A stretch of DNA of 64,000 nt from Candidatus Pacearchaeota archaeon. Lineage in GTDB: Archaea; Nanobdellota; Nanobdellia; UBA10117; JAFCGA01. The stretch's first letter is position 1. The number at the start of each line of letters is the position of its first letter. A model generated the notes under the pieces. The model saw only the letters and a program-made list of their open reading frames with translations. It had not been told where the DNA came from and searched no databases. Shown piece after piece: positions 131 to 19,873 of the stretch. Location: assembly GCA_017608345.1 (NCBI GenBank), contig JAFCGA010000001.1:171036-235035 (forward strand), read 5' to 3'. A program made the position numbers and the translations under genes.

Positions 131-3971
<3,841 letters not shown>

Positions 3972-3979
3972 TAAGTAAT

Positions 3980-4240
3980 ATGGATATTAAAAAAATACTT
4001 TTGTCTAAGAATATTATATTAGGTAAAGATAAAACTCTTAGATTGCTAAAAAAAGGTAAGATATCTGAGATTTTGTTAGCGAATAATGTGCCAGAGCTAG
4101 TTAAAAAAGACATCACTAGCTTAGCTAATCTTGCTGGCGCTAAAGTTTCTGTACTTACATACACAAATGATGAGCTGGGTGCATTGTGTAAGAAACCTTT
4201 CACTGTATCAATAATTGGACTAACTAAAAAAATAGAATAG
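3980..4240 (+). CDS. rpl30e: 50S ribosomal protein L30e
   Basis: 86-aa ORF with L30e/L7Ae-fold pattern (GKDKTLRLLKKGKISEILLANN..ELGALCKKPFTVSIIG); conserved position after rpoA2. Confidence 0.85.
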   Translation: MDIKKILLSKNIILGKDKTLRLLKKGKISEILLANNVPELVKKDITSLANLAGAKVSVLTYTNDELGALCKKPFTVSIIGLTKKIE

Positions 4241-4248
4241 TAACGCTA

Positions 4249-4355
4249 ACACGTCGGAAGCAGCCTTTTAGGAAAAGGCTGGCGAAAAGAAGATACCTTT
4301 ACGCTGCTTCCTCGTGTCTTAGTTTTCGACATACTCGAGAACGAAAACCAAGATG
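4249..4355 (+). ncRNA. Unclassified structured RNA element / 5' leader, copy 1 (rpl30e-nusA spacer)
   Basis: Stem ACACG..GGAAGCAG / CTGCTTCC..CGTGT encloses hairpin agcctttt-agg-aaaaggct. A second hairpin cttagttttcg/cgaaaaccaag ends at the nusA ATG. Homologous copy at 19092-19171 (-). Confidence 0.35.
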
Positions 4356-4772
4356 GTTATAAAAAAGTACAGCGCTGAGAACTTGCAATGCATGAATCTT
4401 TTCAAGAGAGTAACTAGAATTATGCCTAAGGATTTTTTCGAGGTTGGCTCTGATCTCGTATTTATTGTAGATAAAATGCAAGTAGGAATAGCTCTCGGCA
4501 AAGGTGGAGCTAATATAAAGCGGCTTCGTGAGTTGATGGATAAGCGGATTAAAGTAGTTGGAGCTGGAAAAGATGCTAAAGAGCTAATCACTAATTTCAT
4601 CTTTCCGCTAAAACCCAAAAATATCGTTCAGGAGGACGCTACGATTAATATTGAATTCAATACTGGCTCTGAGCGGAGAGCACTTCTTGGGAATCAGCAA
4701 TCTCGGTTAAAGTTACTGAAAGAGACTGTTAAACGATACTTCCCGGAAATTAAAGAGATTCGGATACTGTAA
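4353..4772 (+). CDS. nusA: Archaeal NusA-like transcription termination/antitermination protein (KH domains)
   Basis: 139-aa ORF; KH-type GxxG (GIALGKGGANIKRLRE); size and position after rpl30e as in archaeal RNAP operons. Confidence 0.85.
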   Translation: MVIKKYSAENLQCMNLFKRVTRIMPKDFFEVGSDLVFIVDKMQVGIALGKGGANIKRLRELMDKRIKVVGAGKDAKELITNFIFPLKPKNIVQEDATINIEFNTGSERRALLGNQQSRLKLLKETVKRYFPEIKEIRIL

Positions 4773-18856: not shown

Positions 18857-18896
18857 ATTAATTAGTACTGCCAATATTATTTATAATTTGTCTAAG

Positions 18897-18972
18897 AGCA
18901 AGGGGGGAGATTTGAACTCCCGTCTAGAGATCCACAGTCTCTAATTCTAAACCAGGCTAAACTACCCTCGCC
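18897..18972 (-). tRNA. tRNA-His (anticodon GUG) with genome-encoded G-1
   Basis: Manual cloverleaf: acceptor GCGAGGG/CCCTTGC, D stem GTTT/GAAT, anticodon stem AGAGA/TCTCT with loop CTGTGGA, T arm GGGAG-TTCAAAT-CTCCC; extra G at -1 (18972); no encoded CCA. Confidence 0.85.
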
Positions 18973-19091
18973 ATTTGATCTGTTCGGAGTGAGAAAGCTT
19001 ACGCTGTTTCTTAAAACAATGAAAGCACTCACCCAAAAGAGCATTAAAAATAGGTATTATTCTTCTATTACTTGTGGGGATAATCACCTAT

Positions 19092-19171
19092 CATCTTAGT
19101 TTTCGTCTCCGATTGCATTTCGGAAACTAAGACACGAGGAAAGTAACCAATTTCGTGGCTTTCCGAAGTGT
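19092..19171 (-). ncRNA. Unclassified structured RNA element, copy 2 (upstream of tRNA-His)
   Basis: Minus strand reads ACACTTCGGAAAG-ccacgaaattgg-tta-CTTTCCTCGTGTCTTAGTTTCCG-loop-CGAAAACTAAGATG. The 18-nt ttcctcgtgtcttagttt matches 4308-4325. TATA-like box 19193-19200 lies about 22 nt upstream. Confidence 0.4.
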
Positions 19172-19222
19172 AATTAAAGAGTATTTATTGGAGTTTAAAA
19201 AGATTCCGAATAACTCAACTAC

Positions 19223-19873
19223 ATGCTAGAAGCCACGATAGAAGAGCAGAGAAATAATTTAGTAAGTCCCATAGACACGTATAAACAAGAATGCATCTCT
19301 GCTGCTCTAAAATCCGCGCGAAGAGCTACATATGCGAACTACGGCCGGCAGCTAGAAGTATTAATCGGATCGAACAGATTCTGGGAAAGCCTAATAACTG
19401 CTAAATTTAAGGATCAGCGAGTGATAGAACTCGGACCAGGGCATGATCCGAAAGCAGATACAATTCTTAATCGATACGGTGCTAGCAAATATCTTGGCGT
19501 GGAGCCGTTTTATACGAAAAGTACAATCAGAGAAGTAAGCAAATGTCAAGGGAATATTGAGATAGTAAACGCAGAAGCCATTGACTTCCTTTCTGAGCAG
19601 CCAGACAATTCTGCGATAGTGATGAGTTGCGGCGTAATATGTTCAGAATTATTTCAAGAAGAAATTTTTAGCTCGCGAAAGATCGCTAACGATTATCTCC
19701 GATTTTTAGGTCAGGAGATATATCGAGTGACTCTAGAGAATAATATCACGTTACATCTAACATATTTTGAGCCCTTTGAAATCCAGATGTTCTTCTTAGA
19801 TAATGGATTCGAACAGATAAATAACGCTCCGATAGACGCGAACTACAGAAATATATTTCTTAAACCCGCCTAA
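19223..19873 (+). CDS. Hypothetical protein, possibly class I SAM-dependent methyltransferase-like
   Basis: 216 aa; VIELGPGHD resembles methyltransferase motif I; TATA-like gtttaaaaag about 23 nt upstream; otherwise unrecognised. Confidence 0.3.
   Translation: MLEATIEEQRNNLVSPIDTYKQECISAALKSARRATYANYGRQLEVLIGSNRFWESLITAKFKDQRVIELGPGHDPKADTILNRYGASKYLGVEPFYTKSTIREVSKCQGNIEIVNAEAIDFLSEQPDNSAIVMSCGVICSELFQEEIFSSRKIANDYLRFLGQEIYRVTLENNITLHLTYFEPFEIQMFFLDNGFEQINNAPIDANYRNIFLKPA

Follow-up and report, generated by a model that had tools for sequence, protein, structure and literature searches.

The spacer between rpl30e and nusA in a 64,000-nt stretch of an archaeal genome (the window; C1:171036-235035 of the assembly) is filled by a structured element, here called copy A, that belongs to a family of 29 copies spread over 12 of the 15 contigs of that genome. 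The source is a tiny DPANN archaeon, Woesearchaeota-like, and the assembly is a metagenome-assembled genome (MAG; 1.05 Mb, 39% G+C, 88% complete). [quoted passage not shown] Small palindromic repeats are a familiar feature of bacterial genomes, whereas only a handful of families, MITEs and palindrome-associated transposable elements (PATEs), have been described in archaea. To our knowledge there is none in DPANN archaea, and our literature search found no such repeat family in that group.

Copies were sought across the whole assembly by BLAST, iterated nhmmer and motif scanning, and those found were scored with two covariance models, R1 for class I (built from 15 copies, alignment A2) and R2 for the shorter class II (alignment A3). 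The genome holds 18 full class I copies (R1, E ≤ 3e-6) and 11 class II units of 45–47 nt (R2, E ≤ 5e-9 in the source genome itself). All copies have hairpin 1 in common, with the fixed base ACACG-TC-GGAA…TTCC-T-CGTG(T/C) (ACACGTCGGAA...TTCCTCGTGY), and CGTC stands directly 5′ of the inner stem in 25 of the 29 (copy B, described below, has CTTC). In class I this hairpin (ACACGTCGGAA…TTCCTCGTGT) is followed by a second one, which carries a purine tract resembling a Shine-Dalgarno (SD) sequence and ends at a start codon. Class I hairpin 1 is 97% paired, with neither variation nor covariation at its base. In hairpin 2, both sides have changed in seven of the eight pairs, 90.8% of cells are paired, and the covariation score was reached by none of 500 shuffles, the copies compared being paralogues. 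Alignment statistics for class II are weak, as the second hairpins of its subtypes do not align.

Copy A had been described in an initial annotation, made from the window alone, as an unclassified structured RNA with a second copy 15 kb away. Its proposed fold was borne out: ACACG (4249-4253) pairs with CGTGT (4313-4317), GGAAGCAG (4256-4263) pairs with CTGCTTCC (4304-4311), these two stems enclose a CCTTTT-AGG-AAAAGG hairpin, and the 3′ arm of a second hairpin ends at the nusA ATG (4353). The predicted free energy is −36.9 kcal/mol (z = −4.3 vs. shuffled controls). The minus strand of 19092-19171 does carry the same design (copy B; −21.0 kcal/mol, z = −2.4), with GGAAAG/CTTTCC as the inner stem and 18 nt identical between A (4308-4325) and B (19141-19124), and the homology of the two exceeds chance (R1, 62 bits and E = 1e-10 for A; 87.6 bits for B). 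Copy B is thus real, but the two are not a pair: they belong to a set of 18 full and 11 short copies. The picture of a structured family without a name held: the helices are real, hairpin 2 covaries, and there is no known Rfam relative (an Rfam 15 scan of the window passed the gathering threshold only at tRNA-His, and permissive scans of both loci gave matches only at E ≥ 0.12, far under gathering scores). At the base of hairpin 1, which is conserved in sequence, covariation is absent.

The family was restricted to the source genome, the closest relatives compared being no nearer than approximately 60–70% protein identity. Neither the 38 other genomes of the order nor 400 genomes from the class (235 genera) yielded an R1 match, and R2 gave none in the 38 genomes of the order save a marginal one (E = 0.014). 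Two strict pattern scans of a metagenome collection returned no match, and a scan of a viral collection returned two, both of them chance. A looser scan of a genome collection returned at least 107 chance matches, mostly bacterial, including two archaeal ones that were judged chance on inspection, and an exact-protein look-up for an identical NusA in other strains gave no match. The covariance-model search suggested in the initial annotation yielded 29 copies in the genome itself and none in relatives.

Two of the sites occupied here were observed to be empty in relatives. The rpl30e-nusA junction measures 112 nt, vs. TAA-a-ATG in the closest relative (L166, 63% NusA identity); the two genes overlap by 1 nt in L167 and L168 (60% NusA identity), and approximately 20 genomes of the order have junctions of 0–20 nt. 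At L37Ae, the TATA box of 24 of 29 relatives lies between −32 and −24 relative to the ATG, a position which indicates that the gene is leaderless there, whereas here the box lies at −98/−100 with a class I copy in between. The empty nusA and L37Ae sites show that both occupied ones are derived insertions. As a separate observation, one relative with a long rpl30e-nusA spacer (L138:1400-1500, genome G029) has the nusA start duplicated (…ggtttgcaaaATGA… twice) approximately 70 nt apart, an orphan-gene-start pattern in another lineage.

Class I copies occupy a defined place relative to promoter and start codon. Genome-wide promoter and SD statistics, which rest on crude gene calls, showed that, among 521 genes whose upstream spacer is 60 nt or longer, TATA-like hexamers peak between −31 and −26 relative to the ATG (346 hexamer matches in the two bins of the peak), and approximately 250 of 870 called genes had a TATA box at −32 to −25. 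A box this close to the ATG, approximately 28 nt away, implies that mRNAs without a leader are the norm in this organism. In 12 of the 18 class I copies a TATA hexamer was located 26–38 nt upstream of ACACG, which puts the predicted transcription start at the 5′ end of the element, so that class I spans the exact interval from predicted transcription start to ATG. Pairing of the final 20 nt of class I with the 3′ end of 16S rRNA (GGAUCACCUCCU) averages −5.9 kcal/mol, compared with means of −5.0 kcal/mol for operon-internal genes and −2.75 kcal/mol for leaderless genes, and the 3′ arm of hairpin 2 contains SD-like tracts. In copy A this pairing is weak (−3.3 kcal/mol); the copy lies inside the RNA-polymerase/rpl30e/nusA operon, and no promoter of its own was found.

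Signs of insertion were observed at several levels. Five class II units lie in coding sequence, all in the same frame and without stops, in L7Ae, DnaK, HIT, FtsY and RadA. They are located outside Pfam domains, in low-complexity tails, and encode DTSEQxPRASSKAEG, with a stem that covaries across codons (GAA…GTT vs. GAG…ACT or GAG…GCT; Glu with Val, Thr or Ala); the remaining units are intergenic or nested. The C-terminal tail of L7Ae (C1:24637-25323) is rich in Lys, Glu, Pro and Ala and runs approximately 120 aa past the domain, and those of DnaK, HIT, FtsY and RadA resemble it. One of the two copies of a duplicated 46-nt sequence is split by a 45-nt class II unit (C5:24894-24938), with unambiguous borders (cttagc/…/gtaagc) and no target duplication. 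Hairpin 1 of the L35Ae copy contains a nested class II-like unit of 47 nt, also with clear borders and no target duplication, and removal of this unit restores the canonical ACACGTCGGAAAGCC.

Modules are shared among copies as well. Three class I copies carry a 57-nt two-hairpin module exactly at the hinge between their hairpins (CGTGTCT/TAG), and further relatives of this module were seen on C2, C4, C10 and C12. Apex types and hairpin 2 types are reshuffled among copies. The apex module of A is a separate repeat nested in hairpin 1; it is 87–91% identical to modules inside the introns of tRNA-Arg (C2:62418-62449) and tRNA-Leu (C2:89605-89642), and its identity to the apex of class I copy C3:7158 (module C3:7101-7146), where it stands in inverted orientation, is 91%. 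The occurrence of the apex module in both orientations points to insertion at the DNA level rather than at the RNA level. Copy A is an insertion into the rpl30e-nusA junction that carries an intron-type module in its apex. At copy B, the ATG that follows opens only eight codons, so no real gene stands at the 3′ end, and the tRNA-His and HisRS genes farther on apparently have a TATA box each. For these reasons B looks like an orphan copy, placed upstream of tRNA-His beside a shared TATA box. On each strand, that box (19194-19201) begins 29–30 nt 5′ of its target, the first base of B at 19171 on the minus strand and the plus-strand ATG at 19223, and it may be a shared or bidirectional promoter for B and the divergent 216-aa gene that starts at 19223.

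The two strands were not equivalent. Mismatches on the sense strand comprise 17 A.C or C.A cells vs. 5 G.U cells, and folding is more stable for the antisense strand in 14 of the 18 class I copies and in 9 of 10 class II copies (23/28), copy A among them (−41.6 vs. −36.9 kcal/mol for the sense strand). Selection on a sense RNA would tolerate G.U and avoid A.C; the reverse was seen, which argues against a sense-RNA function. This is a moderate argument, given that the copies are related and the counts non-independent. The asymmetry fits two explanations: shaping of the hairpins on the opposite strand, in the form of single-stranded DNA or of an antisense RNA, or their weakening in the mRNA. The dedicated functional RNA proposed initially is disfavored by these mismatches, by the lack of homologues in relatives, by the empty rpl30e-nusA site and by the dispersed, inserting character of the repeat. 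The similarity of A and B is explained by a dispersed repeat with signs of insertion (in frame, nested and interrupting duplicated sequence). The initial annotation had itself named a lack of homologues in relatives and a similarity owed to a mobile element as grounds against its proposal, and this is largely what was found.

We propose that copies would arise by DNA-level insertion, presumably catalysed in trans by some enzyme. The apex of hairpin 1 admits other modules. A class I copy landing just 5′ of a start codon would fill the interval from transcription start to ATG; a leaderless gene, or in the case of nusA a translationally coupled one, would thereby acquire a structured, SD-supplying leader. 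It could persist at that place because the spacing of promoter and start would stay intact, an SD would come with the element, and the gene would remain expressed. Surviving class I copies may be tolerated or mildly useful, the latter through a 5′-terminal stem-loop that would protect the mRNA and through the SD; class II would persist where 15 additional codons are tolerated. A change from leaderless to SD-bearing leader at 15 or more loci would represent a concrete, gene-by-gene route for changing the mode of initiation. Moreover, mRNA leaders and tRNA introns have modules in common. More generally, when an RNA motif is seen in two copies in a MAG, the whole genome should be checked before an RNA family is named.

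Several observations weigh against a non-autonomous mobile repeat. Each of the 18 class I copies stands in sense orientation directly 5′ of a start codon, and 11 of the set precede translation or transcription genes or features (S15, L3, L34e, L35Ae, L37Ae, aIF5A, NusA, Spt4, tRNA-His, archease or NFACT), a bias of orientation and gene stronger than simple tolerance predicts. The covariation of hairpin 2 is a further such point. The 88%-complete assembly gave no match to Y1 transposase (PF01797) or TnpB (PF07282), and it holds no multi-copy repeats above 200 bp besides LamG-type surface-protein domains and no multi-copy insertion sequence, although insertion sequences may have been lost from the MAG. 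Terminal inverted repeats are absent, the 5′ end (ACACGTCGG) not being the inverse of the 3′ end (…CCAAG or …GCTGAAG), and none of the inserts has a target-site duplication; the elements are therefore not classical MITEs. In addition, S15 is preceded in three relatives (L173-L175) by multi-hairpin leaders of their own, unrelated in sequence to class I, which hints at a functional need for structured leaders. The promoter region upstream of S15 in one of them (L174) is homologous to that of the source genome.

These leaders, the orientation and gene bias, the covarying hairpin 2, the invariant base of hairpin 1 and the SD-like tracts in the 3′ arm of hairpin 2 would all be expected if class I were a dedicated cis-regulatory 5′ leader regulon, in which a protein reads the hairpin 1 base and hairpin 2 gates the SD and the start codon. 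Its copies, perhaps mobile in origin, would now be kept for function, in the manner of 5′ terminal oligopyrimidine (TOP)/LARP1 control or of bacterial ribosomal-protein leaders. We consider such a regulon unlikely, however, because the hairpin is also present in frame within the tails of proteins, as well as in 3′ intergenic DNA, B precedes a mere 8-codon ORF, the family is in none of the relatives examined (the nusA and L37Ae sites being empty there), A.C mismatches exceed G.U on the sense strand, the SD complementarity of A is weak, and no candidate protein binding hairpin 1 has emerged so far. It is distinctly unlikely that a self-spreading leader cassette, with modules in common with tRNA and rRNA introns, entry into genes at start codons and protein tails, and a factor that reads hairpin 1, has moved translation and transcription genes from leaderless to leader-dependent expression in a TOP-like regulon. 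If it had, mobile DNA would have made an archaeal TOP-like regulon that is still turning over; S15, L3, L34e, L35Ae, L37Ae, aIF5A, NusA, Spt4 and others would have been rewired, and the unrelated S15 hairpin leaders of the relatives would belong to the same turnover.

Duplicated gene ends were found beside some copies. At the L3 locus (C2:108900-109120) the order is promoter, SD, 21-codon orphan ORF, 63 nt, class I copy and real L3; the first 13 residues of the orphan ORF equal the L3 start, and all differences are synonymous. Likewise, three of the five intergenic class II units are flanked by two diverged copies of the last 8–14 codons of the neighbouring gene. Such duplications may reflect the insertion mechanism. 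They would also result if the copies were scars of small integrative elements or of gene-end-replacing recombination, which would have imported a promoter and leader, or a hairpin, along with a recoded gene end, and would have left the original gene end as an orphan. There is only a slim chance of this, as most class I copies, A included, have no adjoining orphan gene end, the 45-nt unit on C5 and the nested one of 47 nt have inserted cleanly, without importing a gene end, and no associated integrase was found.

The stable fold, the TATA box approximately 29 nt upstream of B and the position of A next to rpl30e could be cited in favour of a family of stand-alone small RNA genes, or of a kink-turn (K-turn) target of L30e/L7Ae. 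Both forms of the idea are very improbable: A has no promoter of its own and is inside an operon, the elements end at start codons with no terminator after them, no Rfam family matches, and copies are also in frame in coding sequence. As for the K-turn (a 3-nt bulge followed by tandem sheared G.A), inspection of sequences and folds showed an internal loop of UC opposite U in the conserved part and no GA/AG pair on either strand; the K-turn was rejected, and with it the possibility, raised in the initial annotation, that L7Ae or L30e binds the element. A double-stranded-DNA operator for a dimeric transcription factor, for which the ACACG...CGTGT dyad at the predicted transcription start site might be taken, is scarcely credible and was rejected, since the arms lie 15 to approximately 59 nt apart depending on the copy, a range that a fixed dimer could not accommodate, the arms are asymmetric (TC vs. 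T), and copies are also located inside coding regions and an operon.

Table 1. Positions of copies A and B, their neighbours and related features. Positions without prefix are those of the window; C prefixes denote contigs of the source assembly and L prefixes loci of relatives.
Feature	Position	Strand	Basis or remark
Copy A, complete class I element filling the rpl30e-nusA spacer	4249..4352	+	R1
Hairpin 1 of A	4249..4317	+	Base ACACG-TC-GGAA...TTCC-T-CGTGT, invariant across copies
48-nt apex module of A, in hairpin 1 loop	4260..4307	+	CCTTTT-AGG-AAAAGG hairpin plus GGCGAAAAGAAGATA...
Hairpin 2 of A	4318..4352	+	CTTAGTTTTCG (4318-4328) pairs with CGAAAACCAAG (4342-4352)
rpl30e (L7Ae/L30e family), upstream operon gene	3980..4240	+	ORF list, tblastn; L166 orthologue carries PF01248
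nusA (archaeal KH-domain NusA)	4353..4772	+	ATG 4353 is the orthologous start: MVIKKYSAENLQ here vs. MQIKKYSAESLQ in L166
Copy B, complete class I element	19095..19171	−	R1
Hairpin 1 of B	19132-19171	−	CCACGAAATTGG apex, short
Hairpin 2 of B	19095-19131	−	Sequence and fold
8-codon ORF (MIGDYPHK*) opened by the ATG after B	19068..19094	−	Read from sequence
TATA-like box TTTTTAAA / TTTAAAAA	19194..19201	both	Position vs. genome-wide TATA peak
tRNA-His(GTG)	18896..18971	−	120 nt downstream of B; HisRS gene next
Class I downstream genes, ribosomal		sense	S15, L3, L34e, L35Ae, L37Ae; Pfam or clear sequence
Class I downstream genes, other translation/transcription			NusA (copy A), Spt4, NFACT/Rqc2-like protein, archease
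Class I downstream, non-coding or orphan			Orphan ORF before aIF5A; 8-codon ORF then tRNA-His (copy B)
Class I downstream genes, others			CDC48, DUF2304, TerB-like, winged-helix protein, Cys-rich 564-aa protein
Class I downstream genes, others (small)			80-aa basic protein, 51-aa protein
57-nt hinge module (CCAAAGAAAATC…GATTTTCTTGG, CCAAGAGAAATC…)	C11:23212-23267, C5:29666-29722, C2:135195-135250
tRNA genes with long non-canonical introns	Arg C2:62249-62474, Leu C2:89520-89663		Carry the pyrimidine-run/purine-run module of the A apex
Third tRNA-like gene, Ser/Leu-like, with module-bearing intron	C2:65938-65975		Unparsed by ARAGORN
Duplicated gene ends around class II units	C5:24740-24960, C14:66500-66710, C1:25920-26080		Unit of the last at C1:25986
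S15 structured leaders, 60-165 nt, at least 2 hairpins	L173:540-605, L174:625-712, L175:450-595		Woesearchaeota-like relatives

Two class I copies (C1:20540-20560 and C3:16125-16135) have ATC (S15) or ATA in place of the terminal ATG, and at S15 the Pfam alignment puts residue 1 at the position of the ATC; either non-ATG starts are in use or these copies have decayed. At the SRP RNA locus, inspected as a candidate site, only the SRP RNA with an ordinary TATA box was seen, and it does not belong to the family. Upstream of rpl30e, the C-terminal tail of RpoA″ contains a perfect 51-nt tandem repeat in 2.5 copies (window 3824-3952, plus strand). The peptide of this repeat has PRAS in common with the class II peptide, and RpoA″ is 429 aa long here vs. 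377 aa in a relative.

The family was also compared with known systems. R1 had no match in the 38 genomes of the order and the 400 of the class, contrary to what a conserved leader at orthologous genes would show, and of the features of a MITE, no terminal inverted repeats, no target duplications and no autonomous partner were found in the 88%-complete assembly. The PATEs of Haloquadratum are derived from IS200/IS605 elements. Like them, the present elements are archaeal and non-autonomous, with sub-terminal hairpins and insertion without target duplication, but the source genome has no TnpA/TnpB and there is no conserved target tetranucleotide in the 5′ flank; an origin from IS200/IS605 or from REP-associated tyrosine transposases (RAYTs) was rejected because neither a Y1 transposase nor TnpB was found in the 88%-complete assembly. 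Archaeal tRNA and rRNA introns occur at non-canonical positions, and transposition has been proposed for them. The identity between the apex of A and the modules in tRNA-Arg and tRNA-Leu introns (87–91%) is a likeness to these, whereas the apex module in both orientations is a difference. An archaeal intron of the bulge-helix-bulge type (two 3-nt bulges with 4 bp between) was rejected, no such motif having been found at class I or class II borders in minimum-free-energy folds and by inspection.

Correia elements of Neisseria and ERIC elements of Enterobacteria are 100–200 bp long, with terminal inverted repeats, target duplications and, in some, promoters, and they form co-transcribed hairpins in 5′ untranslated regions that alter mRNA processing, stability or translation (PMC10969869). 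The present elements are similarly dispersed hairpin repeats, often just upstream of genes, with nested insertions and an inversion; they differ in having no terminal inverted repeats or target duplication and a 3′ end that falls at the start codon. By definition, a REP is a short palindrome whose conserved 5′ tag is a tetranucleotide, GTAG or CGTC (PMC3733652), and such a palindrome is what we observed, although no associated RAYT (PF01797) gene was found in the genome. The CGTC-tagged REP-like stem-loops (Di Nocera et al. 2013), which include RPE-4 and RPE-6 and have no dedicated transposase, possess 8–9 bp stems starting with A/T pairs, 4–5 nt loops and CCA tails; their units join in head-to-head dimers, are found mainly downstream of genes and have been reported in bacteria only (PMC3733652). 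The likeness consists of short stem-loops directly after CGTC (25/29 here), intragenic copies and the absence of a dedicated transposase; the inner stem here is 6 bp and lies inside a second conserved stem.

RPEs, as outlined in a general account, measure approximately 100–150 bp and insert in frame (Ogata et al. 2000; PMC10969869). Measured against that outline, the unit here is shorter (45–47 nt, 15 codons), its host is an archaeon, no sequence similarity was seen, and one subfamily is a 5′ leader ending at start codons. Within the same outline, both are small palindromic repeats without a transposase of their own, in a reduced genome, with non-coding copies and with copies in frame in unrelated, conserved housekeeping genes, to which they add a conserved peptide in tolerant regions. 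A palindrome in frame and without stops in several unrelated conserved genes is the hallmark of the Rickettsia type and was observed here, so that these protein-coding palindromes in core proteins represent an archaeal parallel to the Rickettsia elements.

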